This document shows, in pieces, positions 6,039 through 20,000 of a stretch of 20,000 nucleotides of DNA (positions within the stretch are counted from its first letter, which is position 1; every line of letters starts with the position of its first letter). A program made the position numbers and the translations under genes. Where the stretch lies: IMG/VR virus record IMGVR_UViG_3300030380_004460; one strand, written 5' to 3'. This stretch comes from an uncultured virus (IMG/VR IMGVR_UViG_3300030380_004460). Taxonomy: Duplodnaviria > Heunggongvirae > Uroviricota > Caudoviricetes. The notes under the pieces were generated by a model. It did no database searches, was not told where the DNA came from, and worked only from the letters and a program-made list of their open reading frames with translations.

Positions 6039-6310
6039 CTCAAAAACTCCGGTACTTTATCTTTTATTCTATTTGCTTGTGTCTTAGTATATCTAAAAAC
6101 AACGTCGCCTTTAGTGTCCTCTTGTACAGTCCACTTCTTAACTATCACTAAATCTCCAACTCTCACCCATACTTTCTTTTTCATCTTTCCTACAATACGG
6201 CACATTCTATTTTTTTCATCTTCACAGATTACTGTTGCTCTAGCTGCGCCATTCATTTCCCTAACCACACCAAACATTTCACCTCTTGGTGCGTAGGGTA
6301 GTTTATTCAT
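6035..6310 (-). CDS. eif1a: Archaeal translation initiation factor aIF-1A (eIF1A homolog, OB fold)
   Basis: GEMFGVVREMNG...VICEDEKNRMCRIVGKMKKKVWVRVGDLVIVKKW...KGDVVFRYTKTQ matches the aIF-1A/eIF1A consensus; start ATG 6310 after GGTGG. Confidence 0.93.
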   Translation of the reverse strand: MNKLPYAPRGEMFGVVREMNGAARATVICEDEKNRMCRIVGKMKKKVWVRVGDLVIVKKWTVQEDTKGDVVFRYTKTQANRIKDKVPEFLR

Positions 6311-13265: not shown

Positions 13266-13518
13266 TATCGCAGATGCTGTAACTCTCCTTCAATTCTTCT
13301 AAAGTAACATTGTCATTACTTTTTTTTTGTCTACGAATGTAAAAATCAATTTGTTTTTGCATTTCATTTATCTCTGCTGATAAACCATACAACCCGAATT
13401 TTACGTTCTCTAAAAACTCAACGTTTTCATCACGCACACTTTGTCTTTGTATTTTGCCGTAGTCTCCTGTGAGTTTTAGCATTTTCTTTATGTTATTCTT
13501 TTTTTCTTTTGTTGTCAT
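13258..13518 (-). CDS. Hypothetical protein
   Basis: 86-aa ORF in operon order. Confidence 0.7.
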   Translation of the reverse strand: MTTKEKKNNIKKMLKLTGDYGKIQRQSVRDENVEFLENVKFGLYGLSAEINEMQKQIDFYIRRQKKSNDNVTLEELKESYSICDND

Positions 13519-13780
13519 TTCTATTTCCTTCCATTACGTTTTCCCTGATAGCCGATGGTTGTAGTTTTGATTCATCAAATAATATAGGGCCATATTCAAA
13601 AGATTTGCCGTCATCTTTCTCATACTCACCTATTAATTTGTTTTTCAAATCAACACCAGCAGGAATGTCAAGTAAGGTGTCTCCACCAAATAAGTCAGCT
13701 TCAAGTTCTTCAAGCACAATTTTGTTCTTGAATATTTCAGCTAATAGCAATTCAAACAGTTTTGTTTCGTGTTCGTTCAT
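13493..13780 (-). CDS. Hypothetical protein
   Basis: 95-aa ORF; start lies just downstream of a BHB element. Confidence 0.7.
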   Translation of the reverse strand: MNEHETKLFELLLAEIFKNKIVLEELEADLFGGDTLLDIPAGVDLKNKLIGEYEKDDGKSFEYGPILFDESKLQPSAIRENVMEGNRNDNKRKKE

Positions 13781-13789
13781 ATTTTGTCC

Positions 13790-13900
13790 TTGTAATGGGC
13801 AGGTAGCGGATACGCAAAATTTAGTGTATGCCTACTTACGATTGCTGCTACAGAGGATTGTCGCAGCCAGAATTCAGTTTCCACTACCTACCTTTCATTA
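13790..13900 (-). ncRNA. BHB-closed structured RNA element 1 (predicted 102-nt excisable RNA)
   Basis: U-AAUG-AAA-GGUAGGUAGUGGA ... UCCGCUACCUGCC-CAUU-ACA-A: 4-bp helix, two 3-nt bulges, 13-bp stem with 2 G.U pairs; internal GCUGC/GUAGC hairpin. Confidence 0.65.
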
Positions 13901-13914
13901 CGTTGTTATCTTAT

Positions 13915-14628
13915 TTAAAATCTTGGGTGCGGCATACCTCCAATTTGCCAATCTCTCGTAACTTCACCGTCAGTCCATATAAGATGCCCTGCTCTCATAA
14001 TTTGTCTACCATCTTCACTAAATGAACCATTAAATGTGTTGACCCATTCATCATAAGTCATATGCATCAATACATATAGTCTGTAGCTCATAGCTCGTTT
14101 TAACGAACTAGAATGATAGTCAGGAAATACTTCTTCGCAATATGCTTGGTAAAGTTCATTGTGAGTATCATCAAGCCTTAAATCTCTGTTTGATGAGTAT
14201 ATCTCAGGAATATTCACGTTGCCTGTAATAAAGTGATGTGACCCGCTGTAATGCTCATCAGCAGTGCGATAAGGCCATCCTTGTCTTTGACCAGTTTTAT
14301 ACAGCACAATATCTCCTGTGATTGAATCGTCATCAAGACCACCCAGCAATCTAGTGTGTATGATGCTGTCATACCTTTGCGTTTCGAACTTGATTGTCCG
14401 ACCGTTCTTTTTGTAGAGCACAACCCATCTTCTACAACGGGTTTCACCTTGTATACGATGAAATATCTCAAGTTCTTGCTCAGTAAACTGATTGCGTGTG
14501 CAGTTTCTCACTAGCGAAGCGTGAGGCCTTGAAAAGTCATCCATTATATCACCTAACTCAGCGATAATATGAACTCTTTCGCGGTCTTCTTTGAACTTCT
14601 CAGCGTTGATTACTATTGTCTGTGTCAT
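13915..14628 (-). CDS. Hypothetical protein flanked by BHB elements
   Basis: 237 aa, SD GGAG; no recognised motif. Confidence 0.8.
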   Translation of the reverse strand: MTQTIVINAEKFKEDRERVHIIAELGDIMDDFSRPHASLVRNCTRNQFTEQELEIFHRIQGETRCRRWVVLYKKNGRTIKFETQRYDSIIHTRLLGGLDDDSITGDIVLYKTGQRQGWPYRTADEHYSGSHHFITGNVNIPEIYSSNRDLRLDDTHNELYQAYCEEVFPDYHSSSLKRAMSYRLYVLMHMTYDEWVNTFNGSFSEDGRQIMRAGHLIWTDGEVTRDWQIGGMPHPRF

Positions 14629-14635
14629 TTGTGTT

Positions 14636-14747
14636 CTCCATTTGTGGGGAAGGAAGCCGTAGGAACAGGGGAAATTGCAAAACCCCTATGTTGAAAGCGA
14701 AACAAACTAAACAAACTGTGTTTGACTTCCTTCCTGTCCACTGCGAG
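14636..14747 (-). ncRNA. BHB-closed structured RNA element 2 (predicted 94-nt excisable RNA)
   Basis: CUC(G)CA-GUGG-ACA-GGAAGGAAGUC ... GGCUUCCUUCC-CCAC-AAA-UGGAG: full hBHBh' geometry, 11-bp stem; internal AUAGGGG/CCCCUGU hairpin. Confidence 0.75.
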
Positions 14748-14773
14748 TGTTGTGCTGCGGGGAGACCGGAGCA

Positions 14774-15091
14774 CTATTTTTTTATCCTCCTGAGTAAACT
14801 CTTTTCACGGCGAGATGTACCAATGATTCTTTTTCTTTTGACAGCTCTTGCGTGTTCAAGTTGCTTACGAAGTACTTCTTTGCGTTTTTCTGTGTTAGCA
14901 ATAAACACAGTTCTACCGTCATCATTTGTGAATACAGAGTATCGTAACTCTGTTCGCTTCATTTCATCTGGAAAGAACTCTCCAGAACAGCACGCACATC
15001 TGTAACATTCGTGATTGTGTTTAGTTTCATTAACTAATCTAACATTGCCGCCATCGTCACAATCAGGGCATTCTATCTTTACTTGAACCAT
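14774..15091 (-). CDS. Zinc-ribbon protein with basic C-terminus
   Basis: CPDC...CACC; TAATG overlap with the peptidase stop. Confidence 0.75.
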   Translation of the reverse strand: MVQVKIECPDCDDGGNVRLVNETKHNHECYRCACCSGEFFPDEMKRTELRYSVFTNDDGRTVFIANTEKRKEVLRKQLEHARAVKRKRIIGTSRREKSLLRRIKK

Positions 15092-16392
15092 TATTCTTCC
15101 TCCATATCAAAAGCATTTGCTTGTTCTGCAATCTTCAAAGCATCTTCGAAGTCTTGCATTTCTTTGATTGAAATCACTGCGTCAGTTCCGTCGCCACCAC
15201 TACCGATTACGATGTACTGATTGACTTCTGATAACTCCACAAAGAAGTCGCTCCATCCCTCATCAATCACAATAGATTTGTGAGACGCACTGAGATAGAC
15301 GTGACCTTTGCTTTGTAATGCATCGAACATACCAATACTACCTGTTGCATCTTCAATGTGGTCCATAATAGCATCGAACATATCAAGTGCTTCGTCAAGG
15401 TCTACATCAGTCTTACTACTGTAAACACCAGAGCTGTTACTGTAGTATTTGATACCATTGTATTCTGTTTGGCTGTATGCATCATATCTTTCGTAGTTTG
15501 CATAACTGTAAACACCGCCACCCCAACTGTATGAAGCAGTAGGTTTGTATTTGATGTTATCAGGATTTAGACTGAAGTATGTATGAAGCGTTGGTGCAAG
15601 ATACTCGATGAATTGAACTGCTTGCATAAGTTCTTCGTATACAACATACTCACTACCACTGTGTGCATTGTAGTAACCAGCGAATAGATTGATGCCATTG
15701 ATTTGTAACTCTTTGACAATATTGCTGACATCTGATATAGAACCGGTGGATGTCTTGAGACCAAAGTCTTTGCCCCACTCACCGAGCTTTGCATCAAGTT
15801 TGTCAGAGCACAGTTGAACGTCACTGTTCTTGGTGATGATTTCGTCACAACCACGGCGGTCGATAGTAATGTTGAACACAACGTCATCGAACATATCTTT
15901 GTGATTGGACATAGCGAAGTCACTACCGTTTAGTCCTGTCTCTTCTGCTACACATAGTAACCCTGACAGCGGGGTAACTAGCGTTCTGTTGGTGATACAC
16001 TTGAGGACAGCGAATACACCACACTTGTCGTCACCGCCAATAACTTGATTGTTAGTTGAACGGAATACTGTCTTACCATCTTTCTGCTCCTCAACAACTT
16101 CAGGGACAGCAGAACCAACTGTGTCCATATGTGCGTTGAGAAGTATGCGGCGGTCTCCCTCGATGTGATTGGTGAAATAGATATTACCCATACTGTCTAC
16201 AGTATGCTCTATCTCATTGTCACGGAGGTAGTTCGTCACAAATGCAATCATAGGATGTTCTGCTCCACTAGGACTGAATATATCAAACATAGATTTCAGC
16301 AGTGTCTTGTCATCCATTGATGCAGTAGAAACAGGGAAAGCAGTTAGACGACTGTCTTTTGCTTCTGTTTTCATTTCTGTTTTAGTTTTCAT
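15091..16392 (-). CDS. M20/M28-family zinc metallopeptidase/hydrolase
   Basis: LNAHMDTV, GGDDKCG, AEETGLNGS, IDRRG, GSISD, GYYNAH; true start probably ATG 16392 (MKTKTE) after GGAG rather than 16665. Confidence 0.88.
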   Translation of the reverse strand: MKTKTEMKTEAKDSRLTAFPVSTASMDDKTLLKSMFDIFSPSGAEHPMIAFVTNYLRDNEIEHTVDSMGNIYFTNHIEGDRRILLNAHMDTVGSAVPEVVEEQKDGKTVFRSTNNQVIGGDDKCGVFAVLKCITNRTLVTPLSGLLCVAEETGLNGSDFAMSNHKDMFDDVVFNITIDRRGCDEIITKNSDVQLCSDKLDAKLGEWGKDFGLKTSTGSISDVSNIVKELQINGINLFAGYYNAHSGSEYVVYEELMQAVQFIEYLAPTLHTYFSLNPDNIKYKPTASYSWGGGVYSYANYERYDAYSQTEYNGIKYYSNSSGVYSSKTDVDLDEALDMFDAIMDHIEDATGSIGMFDALQSKGHVYLSASHKSIVIDEGWSDFFVELSEVNQYIVIGSGGDGTDAVISIKEMQDFEDALKIAEQANAFDMEEE

Positions 16393-18091
16393 TGTTTGCT
16401 CCAATAATTTTGTAATCGTAATCGGACATAGTTTCTTGCATAGCATAGTCACCTTGTCCGCCGTTGCGAATGCCAACCACTCTAGTGTGTTGTGCCTCGT
16501 CTTGATAATAGGAATAGTCGGCAGAACTGTCACGAGGTTTAGTGTGCCAGAAGGCAAACCATCGTTGAGTCTGCAGCGATTTGTTGACCGTGCGGTCAGT
16601 AAAGTTGAAACTGTCTCGTATATAACTGTAAACGCTCGAGTCGTGTCTTGAGCTGGAATATGCAATCATCCGATGCGAATCAAATGCTGTGTATGCCCAA
16701 GCATCTATCTGTTTAAATAGCTGGACATAGAACTCTTTCTTTGCTTGAGTGTTTCGCTTTAAATAGAGACGTGAAGGAGCAACAGACACAGGTTCGCTGT
16801 CATCATCCCAGTTGTGTTTGAAAAATCTGATAACCGAGCGACCAATGATTTCGTTGTTGTCATCACGGATAAGAGCAAAGAGGTGAGGGTTGACCAGCAA
16901 ATCTGCAAAGCCAAAGCTGTAAGAACCACGATTAGATTGGTCTTGACAAGAGCCGACACTCGCATTGAACTCGGCAACATCTTTTAGGTCTGTTGGGTCA
17001 AAACCGATTTGCAGTGGATACTCGACATCAACAGCATTGGTTAGATACTGATTGTATCGTTTTGCTGCCAATTGGTCATCCATTCTTCGTAAGTTGAAAT
17101 AGTCAAAGCGTTCTTTGAGTGAACGATTGAAGACATTAGTAACTGCTCGTCGTAGATTACCACCATCTTCAGTCTTGTTAGTGCGCAGCATTTCTGTAAT
17201 CTTTTCTGCGTAAGAACCTTCTACACTGTAGCGGTTCAAATCTGTAACAACAGATTCGAAATCGATTGCTGTGCCACCACGATAGTTGTAACTGTCACCG
17301 TTTTGCCGGTCATAGTATTTGATACAGCTGTGAAACAAGTGACGTAAAGGATGATAAAGGCCGTATTTTTTGTGACGTGTAAAGAACAATTCACTACCAA
17401 TCATCTCTTTGAGAATGTAAGCAAAGTCTTTGTAAATCGGCGATGCGACTTTGATACAGCTTTCTGCATAACCAAAGCTGTTAAGTTCCAAACCGCCCTT
17501 GAGAATCTGTAAGTTGCTGTGTTCGTAATTGTCGTTGTTGTAACTGTAAAACCAATTCAGTTGTGACTGAGCAGATGAACTTAGCGATTGATAACTACCA
17601 GACACGACATCGTGGTCAAGCCAGCGATGAACATCATCTGCAAGGCTGGACTCAGGATTGTGGTAGCAGTCATAACAAAGTTCACTGTCTCCATAATCTG
17701 TCCCAGCGTCAGTAAAATACATAGTGCGGTCACAACGAGAACAGCTCCAAGATAACTCTTGGTCGCTAGCGTGGTCACTACAGCAAGACTCACCGTATTG
17801 TTCATCATAATAATAATCGCCGTGGTCTGTGTTGATAAGTTCGCCACAATACTCACAGCTTGACATATTGTTAGAGCAATCAGAACACACCGGTTCTCCA
17901 GAACAAGTGCTGTAAGGTGCATTGTCGTTTGTGAAAGTTTCTCCGCAGCCATCACAACACACCATATTGTTGTGACAGTCAGAGCATACAATCTCATACT
18001 GATGGGTTGACTCAATGACGGCATCTTCTTCGAGGTCAGTCGAGCAGACTTCGCATTGGCAATTGCTGTTGTTTGTTTCTTCTTCCGGCAT
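16382..18091 (-). CDS. Multi-CxxC repeat protein with uncharacterised C-terminal domain
   Basis: About 8 CxxC/CxxH knuckles in the first about 145 aa; C-terminal GSCQD...NPHLFALIRD...GRSVIR...SRLY; SD AGGAG. Confidence 0.85.
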   Translation of the reverse strand: MPEEETNNSNCQCEVCSTDLEEDAVIESTHQYEIVCSDCHNNMVCCDGCGETFTNDNAPYSTCSGEPVCSDCSNNMSSCEYCGELINTDHGDYYYDEQYGESCCSDHASDQELSWSCSRCDRTMYFTDAGTDYGDSELCYDCYHNPESSLADDVHRWLDHDVVSGSYQSLSSSAQSQLNWFYSYNNDNYEHSNLQILKGGLELNSFGYAESCIKVASPIYKDFAYILKEMIGSELFFTRHKKYGLYHPLRHLFHSCIKYYDRQNGDSYNYRGGTAIDFESVVTDLNRYSVEGSYAEKITEMLRTNKTEDGGNLRRAVTNVFNRSLKERFDYFNLRRMDDQLAAKRYNQYLTNAVDVEYPLQIGFDPTDLKDVAEFNASVGSCQDQSNRGSYSFGFADLLVNPHLFALIRDDNNEIIGRSVIRFFKHNWDDDSEPVSVAPSRLYLKRNTQAKKEFYVQLFKQIDAWAYTAFDSHRMIAYSSSRHDSSVYSYIRDSFNFTDRTVNKSLQTQRWFAFWHTKPRDSSADYSYYQDEAQHTRVVGIRNGGQGDYAMQETMSDYDYKIIGANNEN

Positions 18092-18136
18092 TATTTTTTC
18101 TCTCCTAGCTTTTTATTTTTCCCAACACGCTCCGAA

Positions 18137-18148
18137 TATATAATACCT
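18137..18148 (-). promoter_or_regulatory. TATA-box promoter candidate
   Basis: CAAGGTATTATATA about 46 nt upstream of ATG 18091; resembles CAAGGCTTTATATA at 19596. Confidence 0.6.
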
Positions 18149-18167
18149 TGTTTGAGCAGTATTTGGT

Positions 18168-18223
18168 TGTGTGCCGCAGCATAATTCTCTTTTCTCAGCG
18201 CAATCTCACGCTGCGGGGTGCAC
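18168..18223 (-). ncRNA. Imperfect BHB-like hairpin (element 4)
   Basis: GUGC-ACCC-CGCAGCGUGA ... UUAUGCUGCG-GCAC-ACA: 4-bp helix and 10-bp stem with 2 G.U pairs, but the 5' bulge is 4 nt. Confidence 0.45.
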
Positions 18224-18243
18224 GGCGGCATAACGGAAAATTT

Positions 18244-18322
18244 ATTTGTCGGGATAGGAATAGAGCACTGTGAAAGTGAAAAGCATAAAGAAAATTTTTG
18301 CTCCACTCCCATCCTATCGACT
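18244..18322 (-). ncRNA. BHB-closed structured RNA element 3 (predicted 70-nt excisable RNA)
   Basis: A-GUCG-AUA-GGAUGGGAGUGGAGCA ... UGCUCUAUUCCUAUCC-CGAC-AAA-U: 16-bp stem with 3 G.U pairs. Confidence 0.75.
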
Positions 18323-18325
18323 GCT

Positions 18326-18523
18326 TTAATCATCACAACCTCCGCCGTATTTACCTCTCATCCACCAGCGAGGTTCTTCCATTTCGCTAACTTCACCCCA
18401 TTGTTCGTGGTCAATACTGCCGTCTTTGAACAACGGAGCAGTTTGTAAATTCATATCGTTACCTTCGCCTACCCAGCGATATGCATTGCCGGGAAATTCT
18501 TTAATGTAAAATACTTCGGTCAT
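18326..18523 (-). CDS. Hypothetical protein
   Basis: 65 aa; ATGA overlap. Confidence 0.7.
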   Translation of the reverse strand: MTEVFYIKEFPGNAYRWVGEGNDMNLQTAPLFKDGSIDHEQWGEVSEMEEPRWWMRGKYGGGCDD

Positions 18524-18882
18524 CTTCGCTTCCTCCTGATTAGTCTGCCGTCTACACGACTCGTGTCGCTGTGATAAGTATATTTGCCGTGGATTCCACC
18601 GCTTTTATACCCTACTCCGCCGAGTTTCTTTATCTCCAGCAGTATCTTGTCTCGCAGCTTTTTCTCTGCTAAGACTGTAAACATTGCTTTGAGAAAGTCA
18701 TCCATTGCTAACTCGTGTATATCATCTGCTTTCTTTTCAAACCACACAGCAGTTGACTGTTTAATTGCTTCTTTAATCTTGCCGTCAGTCGGATGTAGAT
18801 TGAGCATAGGTTTGGTATAACCCAGCCGTTTAAAATAAGCCAGCATATCTCTGACCCGTTCTGCTTCTTTTTTAGTCAGCAT
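18520..18882 (-). CDS. Hypothetical basic protein
   Basis: Probable start MLTKKEAERV at 18882 (GGAGG 9 nt upstream); the ORF track gives 18963. Confidence 0.72.
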   Translation of the reverse strand: MLTKKEAERVRDMLAYFKRLGYTKPMLNLHPTDGKIKEAIKQSTAVWFEKKADDIHELAMDDFLKAMFTVLAEKKLRDKILLEIKKLGGVGYKSGGIHGKYTYHSDTSRVDGRLIRRKRR

Positions 18883-19619: not shown

Positions 19620-20000
19620 TTTTCTCACCCCAGCACACAGCACTGCTATAAACTACATCCAGCATAGCGTTAAAAATCGCGGGGGAGCATAACGTATACT
19701 ATAGAGCTATACGTTAGGCCTTACAGCAATATTATAAGCTTATGTTAAGTCTAAGCTTAATAGAGCAATAAAAGAAGAAAGTGCTATACAGTATATACTA
19801 CATAGCACTATAGTACTATATAGAGCTATAATATACACTTCGACGTATGCCTTTAGTAATACAGCAAACGCACACACACTGTAGCATTCTAGTTTTGGGC
19901 AAGCGTATGAAAAAGAGGGGGAGCACAACGTATGGCTGCCCGAATTTTGCTCAGAGCGCAAGCGGATGCTCTCAGCAGTACCTCCCGCTGCAGCAGACCG
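19620..20000. repeat. Non-coding repeat/palindrome region (candidate origin or genome terminus)
   Basis: 17-nt direct repeat GGGGGAGCA(T/C)AACGTAT at 19681 and 19917; inverted repeats 19690-19716 and 19780-19809; palindrome TATAGTACTATA 19809-19820; many AGCA tetramers. Confidence 0.6.

Follow-up and report, generated by a model that had tools for sequence, protein, structure and literature searches.

The RNase III sites in the early mRNA of phage T7 are hairpins between early genes, defined by their structure and diverse in sequence. In archaea, the structure cut by the tRNA-splicing endonuclease EndA is the bulge-helix-bulge (BHB), a 4-nt helix between two 3-nt bulges (PMC7714728). Beyond tRNA and rRNA, EndA-type splicing is on record for very few cellular transcripts, the cbf5 pre-mRNA and one Haloferax 5′ untranslated region (UTR) (PMC7714728). 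In the latter, the HVO_1309 mRNA's 5′ UTR in Haloferax volcanii (Schwarz et al. 2020, PMC7714728), EndA excises a 46-nt piece that is recovered as circular RNA. A literature search found no paper on BHB elements in archaeal virus transcripts, subscription journals being mostly outside that search. The present analysis concerns three structured intergenic spacers (spacers 1–3, holding elements 1–3) in a 20,000-nt stretch, called the window, of the uncultured tailed virus IMG/VR IMGVR_UViG_3300030380_004460. What is new is a family-level comparative test of viral BHB elements, 13 elements in nine records. The elements are rather likely to be substrates of a host EndA.

As in the HVO_1309 case, the BHB lies in the non-coding part of a protein-coding transcript, with no tRNA or rRNA context; that case is cellular, concerns a single locus and has been shown experimentally (PMC7714728), whereas the viral elements are multi-copy (one to three per genome), 64–200 nt in size, built on a long conserved stem with a common consensus, and known from sequence alone. 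Archaeal pre-rRNA stems and tRNA introns (hBHBh′, PMC3239211) share with them a long-range pairing of the flanks by which two bulges of 3 nt come to lie 4 bp from each other, in the same handedness, but the viral outer helix is much shorter (1–5 bp) and the enclosed RNA is small, variable and not ribosomal. The crenarchaeal cbf5 pre-mRNA intron has in common the EndA-type splicing of a protein-coding transcript (Watanabe 2002; Yokobori 2009, PMC2738675; as cited in PMC7714728); it interrupts a reading frame, so that function needs ligation, whereas the viral elements are intergenic. With the T7 sites the elements share the form of hairpins between early genes and the use, here proposed, of a host RNA-maturation nuclease; enzyme, domain of life and motif differ, and most members of the viral family do not lie between cistrons of one mRNA.

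Folding of the three spacers

A scan for uninterrupted stems of at least 10 bp, with spans of up to 160 nt, over the whole 54,852-base record gives 520 sense-strand stems. First, second and fourth place among them go to the three spacers, the third being a sub-stem of the first, and a 3-nt 5′ bulge followed by at least four more pairs occurs in all three and in 18 of the 520 stems overall. On the minus strand, spacer 3 folds as GUCG-AUA-16 bp stem...CGAC-AAA (−31.9 kcal/mol, z = −2.87 against dinucleotide shuffles); it holds the strongest stem of the genome and is a strict 3-4-3 motif with one closing pair. Spacer 2 folds as CUC-G-CA-GUGG-ACA-11 bp stem...CCAC-AAA-UG-GAG (−45.8 kcal/mol, z = −3.00) and, unlike spacers 1 and 3, has an outer helix in its minimum-energy fold, of 2 bp, or 5 bp when counted past a bulged G; this helix overlaps the GGAG ribosome-binding site of the gene for a 237-amino-acid (aa) protein. 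Spacer 1 folds as GUAAUG-AAA-13 bp stem...CAUUAC (−41.4 kcal/mol, z = −4.23).

The initial annotation of the window, made from the sequence, had placed these folds on the mRNA strand, and they stand. The same is true of the six non-Watson–Crick stem pairs (3 + 2 + 1), all of which are G·U on that strand, and of the lengths of 102, 94 and 70 nt for the pieces between the predicted cuts, which are arithmetically correct. The annotation also took the spacers to be the three sizeable intergenic gaps of the region; other sizeable gaps exist in the left region.

A family of elements in related viruses

The 237-aa protein, encoded between spacers 1 and 2, has few relatives (four clusters, 56–97% identity). 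Its gene is carried by 13 metagenome loci and one IMG/VR contig, and both spacers are present wherever the locus extends far enough. Within the 13 metagenome loci the helix, bulges and stem arms of spacer 2 are invariant, except for a change of the 5′ bulge from ACA to AUA, and the stem arms are unchanged even at 56–58% identity of the neighbouring protein. The interior of spacer 2 carries insertions and deletions together with a covarying hairpin (GGGG/CCCC, GCUGGG/CCCAGC, AAUGGG/CCCAUU, GAUGGG/CCCAUC), in which four to five pairs show compensatory changes. In spacer 1, two stem positions change from G–C to A–U and a basal helix pair from A–U to G–C, and a large part of the interior is swapped for a shorter sequence in five loci. 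RNAalifold comparison of close relatives finds both-side changes in 6 of 23 pairs of spacer 2, with pairing kept, and in 5 of 19 pairs of spacer 1, including one pair of the central helix; covariation in related spacers, proposed in the initial annotation as a check on its reading, is thus present.

The 569-aa protein encoded downstream of spacer 3 is more widespread, with 27 representative clusters and, by profile search, nine IMG/VR loci at 28–95% identity. Six of these nine have, immediately upstream of the 569-aa homologue and in a syntenic position, an element of the same build and of different sequence, for example GCCG-AUA-GGGAUAGAGUGAC...GUCAUUCUAUUCC-CGGC-AAA, and a seventh, L027, has one at a non-syntenic place. 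Some distant relatives also carry elements of the spacer-2 and spacer-1 types. The family totals 13 intergenic elements in nine records, five whole records included, with one to three per genome, and family-wide covariation was computed on a structure-anchored alignment.

The elements are similar in more than shape. Numbered from its base, the long stem has G–C at position S1 (13 of 13), G–C or A–U at S2, A–U at S4 (11 of 13) and S8 (13 of 13), G–C or G·U at S9 and U·G at S10 (9 of 13), which can be written GGNANGNAGU...GCUNCNUNCC; the statement in the initial annotation that the spacers share no sequence is therefore wrong. Interiors of the spacer-2 and spacer-3 types have a common GGG-UUUUGC...CCC hairpin and a CUCC-containing tail, and those of the spacer-1 type a common hairpin loop, GCGACAAUCCUCUGUA. 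Because the stem consensus and the interior modules are shared, the elements are paralogues of one RNA family whose conservation goes beyond shape. A scan of IMG/VR with the pattern GATAGGNANRNAGT...GCTNYNTNCCC gave 17 stretches, two of which, both already known, have the full structure, the other 15 being chance. The first 50 kb of the cultured halovirus HRTV-27 hold two matches to a relaxed descriptor, both on one strand and without A-rich bulges.

Geometry of the motif

Where a tRNA has its intron at position 37/38, the 5′ strand leads without a break from the anticodon stem into the central helix; of the two splice-site bulges, the 5′ one is found on the inner side and the 3′ one, which belongs to the 3′ strand, on the outer side. 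With h for the outer helix, H for the central helix, B for a bulge and h′ for the inner stem, this layout gives the natural order h-H-B-h′...h′-H-B-h, each bulge being 3′ of its central-helix strand. The viral elements have the same order, the handedness rule being derived from this tRNA layout.

The 5′ bulge is 3 nt long in all 13 elements (AUA in seven, AAA in five, ACA in one). By position, the central helix pairs in 12, 13, 13 and 13 of the 13, with all four positions paired in 12 elements and four pair types found at two of the positions. Past the helix come the 3 nt AAA in nine elements, AAU in two, and ACA and AAC in one each. After exactly 3 nt a closing pair follows in 12 of 13 elements (A–U in seven, C–G in three, U–A and G·U once each); at offsets of 0, 1, 2, 4, 5, 6 and 7 nt the corresponding counts are 2, 1, 1, 2, 4, 5 and 4. 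The long stem h′ has 10–16 bp in all 13 and is asymmetric in purines and pyrimidines, and the outer helix h has 1 bp in five elements, 2 bp in four, 3 bp in one, 5 bp in two and none in one. Conservation of the bulges and of the 4-bp helix in relatives, by which the initial annotation let its proposal stand or fall, accordingly amounts to 13 of 13 for the 5′ bulge and to 12 of 13 for both the four-pair helix and the closed 3′ bulge.

When the helix length is set to exactly 4 bp, the 519 strong stems in the nine records contain the natural-handed combination of two 3-nt bulges with a closing pair 12 times. The other 24 combinations of bulge lengths occur 0–5 times, the 25 mirror-handed ones 0–7 times, and mirror-handed 3/3 not at all. 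A bulge-length table over all 753 weak stems shows no enrichment, the signal being confined to strong stems with the helix held at 4 bp. A descriptor of the complete motif, refined on these same data, asks for a stem, a 3-nt bulge, a 4-bp helix, a closing pair that follows a 3-nt 3′ run, and A-rich bulges. It matches the sense strand of the genome three times, whereas 159 dinucleotide shuffles average 0.019 matches and never give more than one, so that the comparison with shuffled controls proposed in the initial annotation also came out in its favour. It has 10 more matches on eight other records and none on the strand opposite those; a match inside a 450-aa open reading frame (ORF) of record G003 was set aside from the 13 intergenic elements. 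Finally, the 165 long-stem pairs of the 13 elements include 26 G·U pairs and no A·C mismatch, which argues for selection on the sense-strand RNA.

Promoters, tRNA and neighbouring genes

Spacers 1 and 2 stop 13–15 nt short of a start codon with a GGAG/AGGA site, with no TATA-like box between, so that transcription of a polycistronic early RNA must pass through them. Elements that continue in this way into the next gene, with a start codon within about 20 nt, are spacers 1 and 2, the one at 6059 in G003 and the one at 16166 in G006. All eight elements of the spacer-3 type or unassigned have a TATA-like box before the next gene, 9–40 nt past the element in six records, 102 nt past it in the window and beyond a tRNA gene in G003; these elements would thus mark the end of a transcription unit or a cluster of small non-coding RNAs. 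The analogy with T7 RNase III sites drawn in the initial annotation consequently suits the four elements that run into a gene but not the eight that are followed by a TATA-like box. Equivalents of the window's box, GAGTCTTTATATAT and similar, are found in six relatives, and a box of the TTTATATA type precedes the 569-aa gene in at least five divergent relatives. These boxes are putative archaeal TATA promoters. Boxes of the (G/A)AGTCTTTATATAT type stand upstream of the 569-aa homologues in L020–L027 and G002–G006, and similar ones near genome positions 401 and 8037.

The tRNA of G003 (L028 2465–2539) is a bona fide, GC-rich tRNA-Lys(CUU) with encoded CCA (Rfam tRNA, 47 bits), flanked by the spacer-3-type element on one side and by the TATA-like box of the 569-aa gene on the other. 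At the corresponding place the window carries non-coding, structured sequence of about 100 nt, together with a doubtful ORF of 46 aa (18091–18231). The 569-aa protein has no Pfam match, and its N-terminal third contains many invariant Cys pairs. In a structural model of the protein (predicted confidence, pLDDT, 80), the C-terminal part resembles GNAT acetyltransferases only weakly by Foldseek (best E 7e-4), and with this weakly GNAT-like predicted fold the idea that the neighbour might be a nuclease or ligase was rejected. An ORF of 49 aa over the whole of spacer 2 (14625–14774, minus strand; GTG start, strong AGGAGG upstream, ATGA overlap with the start of the next gene) was likewise rejected, the start being lost in distant relatives and the insertions and deletions not being multiples of three.

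A short hairpin, here called X (Table 1), has kin in GCCGCCGUGCACCCCGCAGCG (about 18206–18226, minus strand) after element 3 and also after two elements in G003. Counted together with shorter (G)UGCUCC words, the hairpin GUGCUCCGGUCUCCCCGCAGCAC recurs at least four times in the first 5.3 kb of the genome, including near 19925, 19690 and 19561 (minus strand); at about 19561, GUGCUCC pairs with GGAGUGC, in which the next gene has its ribosome-binding site. At its extreme left end (window 19894–20000, minus strand; genome 1–110), where the contig may be cut, the record forms a long-range fold of −37.5 kcal/mol that terminates in CUCCCCCUCUUUUU.

Table 1. Coordinates of the elements, their predicted cut sites and adjoining features in the window
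Feature	Position	Strand	Details
Element 1 (spacer 1)	13790..13900	-	H AAUG 13899-13896 with CAUU 13797-13794; 5′ bulge AAA 13895-13893
Element 1, stem and interior		-	13 bp, 13892-13880 with 13810-13798; interior 13879-13811, including conserved hairpin loop GCGACAAUCCUCUGUA
Element 1, 3′ side		-	3′ run ACA 13793-13791; possible closing pair U 13900 - A 13790
Element 1, predicted cuts if a BHB	13894/13893 and 13792/13791	-	102-nt piece
Element 2 (spacer 2)	14636..14747	-	Outer helix h CUC-G-CA 14747-14742 with UG-GAG 14640-14636
Element 2, H and 5′ bulge		-	GUGG 14741-14738 with CCAC 14647-14644; ACA 14737-14735
Element 2, stem and interior		-	11 bp, 14734-14724 with 14658-14648; interior 14723-14659, including covarying GGGG...CCCC hairpin
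Element 2, 3′ bulge	14643-14641	-	AAA
Element 2, predicted cuts	14736/14735 and 14642/14641	-	94-nt piece
Element 3 (spacer 3)	18244..18322	-	Closing A 18322; H 5′ strand GUCG 18321-18318; 5′ bulge AUA 18317-18315
Element 3, inner part		-	16-bp stem: 5′ arm 18314-18299, loop 18298-18268, 3′ arm 18267-18252
Element 3, 3′ side		-	H 3′ strand CGAC 18251-18248; 3′ bulge AAA 18247-18245; closing U 18244
Element 3, predicted EndA cuts	18316/18315 and 18246/18245	-	70-nt piece
Hairpin X, GUGCUCCGGUCUCCCCGCAGCAC	14752..14774	-	Right after the stop codon of a 105-aa gene, 4 nt ahead of element 2
569-aa protein gene	16382-18091	-	Adjoins a spacer-3-type element in all relatives
TATA-like box TTATATAT	18136..18143	-	Between element 3 and the 569-aa gene

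The virus and its host

The window is the reverse complement of bases 4–20003 of the record, from which it differs at 10 positions, six of them grouped at 17765–17816. It has a GC content of 37%, carries its genes on the minus strand, and holds no Rfam family at gathering score and no tRNA. Early and replication genes occupy the left arm of the record, and structural genes the right arm on the opposite strand. Pfam identifies a family-B DNA polymerase (PolB), a RecU/Hjc-type resolvase, a DNA methylase, glycosyltransferases, a PD-(D/E)XK nuclease and a class II ribonucleotide reductase.

Within a set of 50,697 phage records, matches to the capsid protein come from eight haloarchaeal tailed-virus records only, namely HVTV-1, HCTV-1, HCTV-5 and their kin (24–28% identity, 93% query coverage). 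In the same set, a 459-aa protein of the replication module matches 53 records only, 39 of Halorubrum, 11 of Haloarcula, two labelled ‘Halophage’ and one ‘Hardygib1’, and in HRTV-27 its homologue adjoins an archaeo-eukaryotic primase and PolB. Many capsid relatives occur in Tara and other marine data, and magroviruses of Poseidoniales are related to the Druskaviridae haloviruses (PMC11706807). Sigma-70-like sites are not enriched (68 vs 63.8 ± 6.2). For this marine virus an archaeal host is highly probable.

A 534-aa protein of the head module (genome 51403–53007) contains a domain common to many marine bacteriophages. Its residues ∼275–410 are 42–64% identical to short proteins of marine bacteriophages of Pelagibacter, Roseobacter and Flavobacterium, annotated ‘HVA1 family’, and its middle part also has matches in two Nitrosopumilaceae virus records.

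Weighing EndA as the proposed processing enzyme

With structure, conservation, covariation, strand specificity and the exact 3-4-3 geometry observed, the best candidate enzyme is EndA, because the 3-4-3 arrangement is present in 12 of 13 elements, the closing pair covaries and an archaeal host is probable. That the elements are host EndA substrates is therefore the favoured reading, held with somewhat more confidence than doubt. Enzymes of the α4 and α2 types require the strict 3-4-3 hBHBh′ motif, whereas the (αβ)2 and ε2 types tolerate relaxed forms (PMC3239211).

Several findings weigh against this reading. The outer helix is a single base pair in five of 13 elements, spacers 1 and 3 among them, which is thermodynamically negligible, and the euryarchaeal enzymes are described as strict. 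Spacer 1 has a competing minimum-energy fold in which GU (13901–13900) pairs with AC (13793–13792), giving a 6-bp helix and abolishing the 3′ bulge; the single architecture that the initial annotation ascribed to all three spacers thus holds for spacers 2 and 3 and fails in the minimum-energy fold of spacer 1. Elements of the spacer-1 type break the motif in three ways in all, an insertion in L008 producing a 6-nt 3′ run and the G003 member having a 3-bp helix with an A·A mismatch and no closing pair, and spacer 1 is the weakest BHB fit. The descriptor was sharpened (closing pair, A-rich bulges) after the relatives had been seen, and several elements are orthologous, so that the descriptor and geometry counts overstate the independence of the evidence. 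The 3-4-3 match set aside in G003 (L028 4505–4667; AAUG-AUA-12 bp...CAUU-CAA) lies inside a 450-aa peptidase-like ORF, where it may be due to chance or be a coding-embedded member. The conserved sequence pattern of the long stem is not required by an enzyme that reads shape, and an additional sequence-specific partner may therefore be involved. On the host side, a capsid-protein profile scan of species genomes found no relatives, and an exact 25-nt word of the relative's tRNA had no match in them; PolB is closest to those of Salinibacter and cyanophages (21–23% identity), the RecU assigned by Pfam looks bacterial-phage-like, and the marine-bacteriophage domain of the 534-aa protein counts against an archaeal host. 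Window 13400–18600 has no counterpart among the RNA runs searched, the single run from the same sample contributing no contigs, which weighs neither for nor against the reading. The EndA/BHB proposal of the initial annotation is thus upheld in part, by the strict, natural-handed 3-4-3 arrangement in 12 of 13 elements, and is left weaker by the deviations of the spacer-1 type and the short outer helix.

Alternative explanations

The alternative that survives best, though clearly a minority view at about one chance in four by our judgement, takes the elements to be structured leader or intercistronic RNAs with no part for EndA. A viral or host RNA-binding protein would bind the conserved bulged stem, with its AWA bulge, its start in GG and its AGU/GCU at positions 8–10, and control translation of the next gene, mRNA stability or read-through, the 3-4-3 arrangement belonging to the binding site of that protein. 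The conservation of the primary sequence of the long stem past the needs of pairing would be accounted for, as would the pairing of the spacer 2 outer helix with the GGAG of the 237-aa gene and the start codons 13–15 nt past spacers 1 and 2, and the U-rich interiors could pause or terminate an archaeal RNA polymerase. However, an arrangement of this handedness, in which bulges of 3 nt on opposite strands are separated by exactly 4 bp, is predicted by no known RNA-binding module, and a K-turn is excluded, the stem opening with G–C and not with tandem G·A. A TATA-like box, not a ribosome-binding site, follows eight of 13 elements, and masking of ribosome-binding sites is therefore not the shared function.

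It is improbable that the host is a bacterium and that the hairpins, like those of phage T7, are RNase III-type sites for the processing or stabilisation of early mRNA. The total duplex of 17–20 bp, the small bulge and the intergenic position would be in keeping with it, and so would the RecU-type resolvase, the affinity of PolB to bacterial phage PolBs and, in the capsid proteins of some relatives, Pfam PF17236, which we take to be the coliphage SU10 capsid protein family. The matches of the capsid and 459-aa proteins to haloarchaeal viruses among the 50,697 records, the lack of sigma-70 enrichment and the TTTATATA-type box before the 569-aa gene speak against it, and it leaves the strict 3-4-3 arrangement with its closing pair unexplained. 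The elements were accordingly not classed as T7-type RNase III sites, the host evidence being archaeal and 3-4-3 no feature of that class, though 17–20 bp would fit.

DNA-level inverted repeats (cruciforms, protein-binding palindromes, miniature transposon ends or replication signals) are strongly disfavoured, for despite the long intergenic inverted repeats near the left genome end, all 26 wobbles are G·U on the sense strand and would be A·C mismatches on the other strand or in the second arm of a cruciform, the 3-nt bulge is asymmetric, flanking direct repeats are absent, and interiors have been exchanged with pairing retained.

Other RNA classes were considered and rejected. In a kink-turn, a 3-nt bulge is followed by tandem sheared G·A pairs. 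Here the pair after the bulge is G–C in 13 of 13 elements and the next is G–C in 11 and A–U in two, the opposite strand ending in CC or UC and not GA, which does not agree with an L7Ae-type kink-turn. An intrinsic terminator is contradicted by the 3′ arm, which continues into the H strand and AAA without a U-tract, and none of the 19 terminator-like sites of the window is at an element. Rfam E-value searches around the spacers gave chance-level matches only, and readings as a C/D-box small RNA, a Y RNA or a miniature inverted-repeat transposable element were rejected on sequence.

Proposed processing and its meaning

If EndA is the enzyme, the motif would be read from the outside in as an outer helix of 1–5 bp, a 3-nt A-rich bulge on the 3′ strand, the 4-bp helix, then on the 5′ strand the AWA bulge of 3 nt, and finally the stem of 10–16 bp enclosing a variable interior. 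Host EndA would recognise this BHB in viral early transcripts and cut both bulges, releasing a piece of 64–200 nt. Candidates for a viral endonuclease or ligase were not found, the eight viral proteins tested having no match to the tRNA-intron endonuclease family even at E ≤ 10. With less certainty than the cutting, RtcB may close the excised piece into a circle, on the model of cellular BHB products (PMC7714728), and might also join the flanks again. In spacers 1 and 2, cutting would split the polycistronic early mRNA or, after ligation, shorten it, either as a side effect or as an extra regulatory layer; since the outer helix of spacer 2 overlaps a ribosome-binding site, processing there could also change translation.

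Most members of the family stand upstream of a TATA-like box or beside a tRNA gene, so that the excised RNA would be the one product common to all contexts, and the release of a small RNA, which may be circular, suits these positions better than the cutting of an operon in the manner of T7. Its modules would be the GGG-UUUUGC...CCC hairpin, the CUCC-containing tail and, once circularised, a CNNNAAA loop. It is tempting to propose, as a tentative extension about which doubt outweighs confidence, that marine archaeal tailed viruses encode a family of small circular RNAs made by hijacking EndA and RtcB at a strict BHB, and acting in early host takeover. Each ring might consist of the purine/pyrimidine stem with the CNNNAAA loop on one side and, opposite, a module with a U-rich tract, the GGG-UUUUGC hairpin and the CUCC tail, which is anti-Shine–Dalgarno-like. 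Such rings could, for example, resist exonucleases and act as decoys, either for ribosome-binding sites or for an RNA-binding factor of the host, while their excision would remodel the early mRNA.

The strictness of the 3-4-3 motif would hint at a homodimeric or homotetrameric enzyme of the euryarchaeal type in the host (PMC3239211). If the favoured reading is true, these elements would provide a sequence-defined, comparatively validated set of EndA substrates for uncultured marine archaea, and their carriers would be the first virus family to use the tRNA-splicing machinery of its host for the processing of its own transcripts or for the production of circular RNAs.

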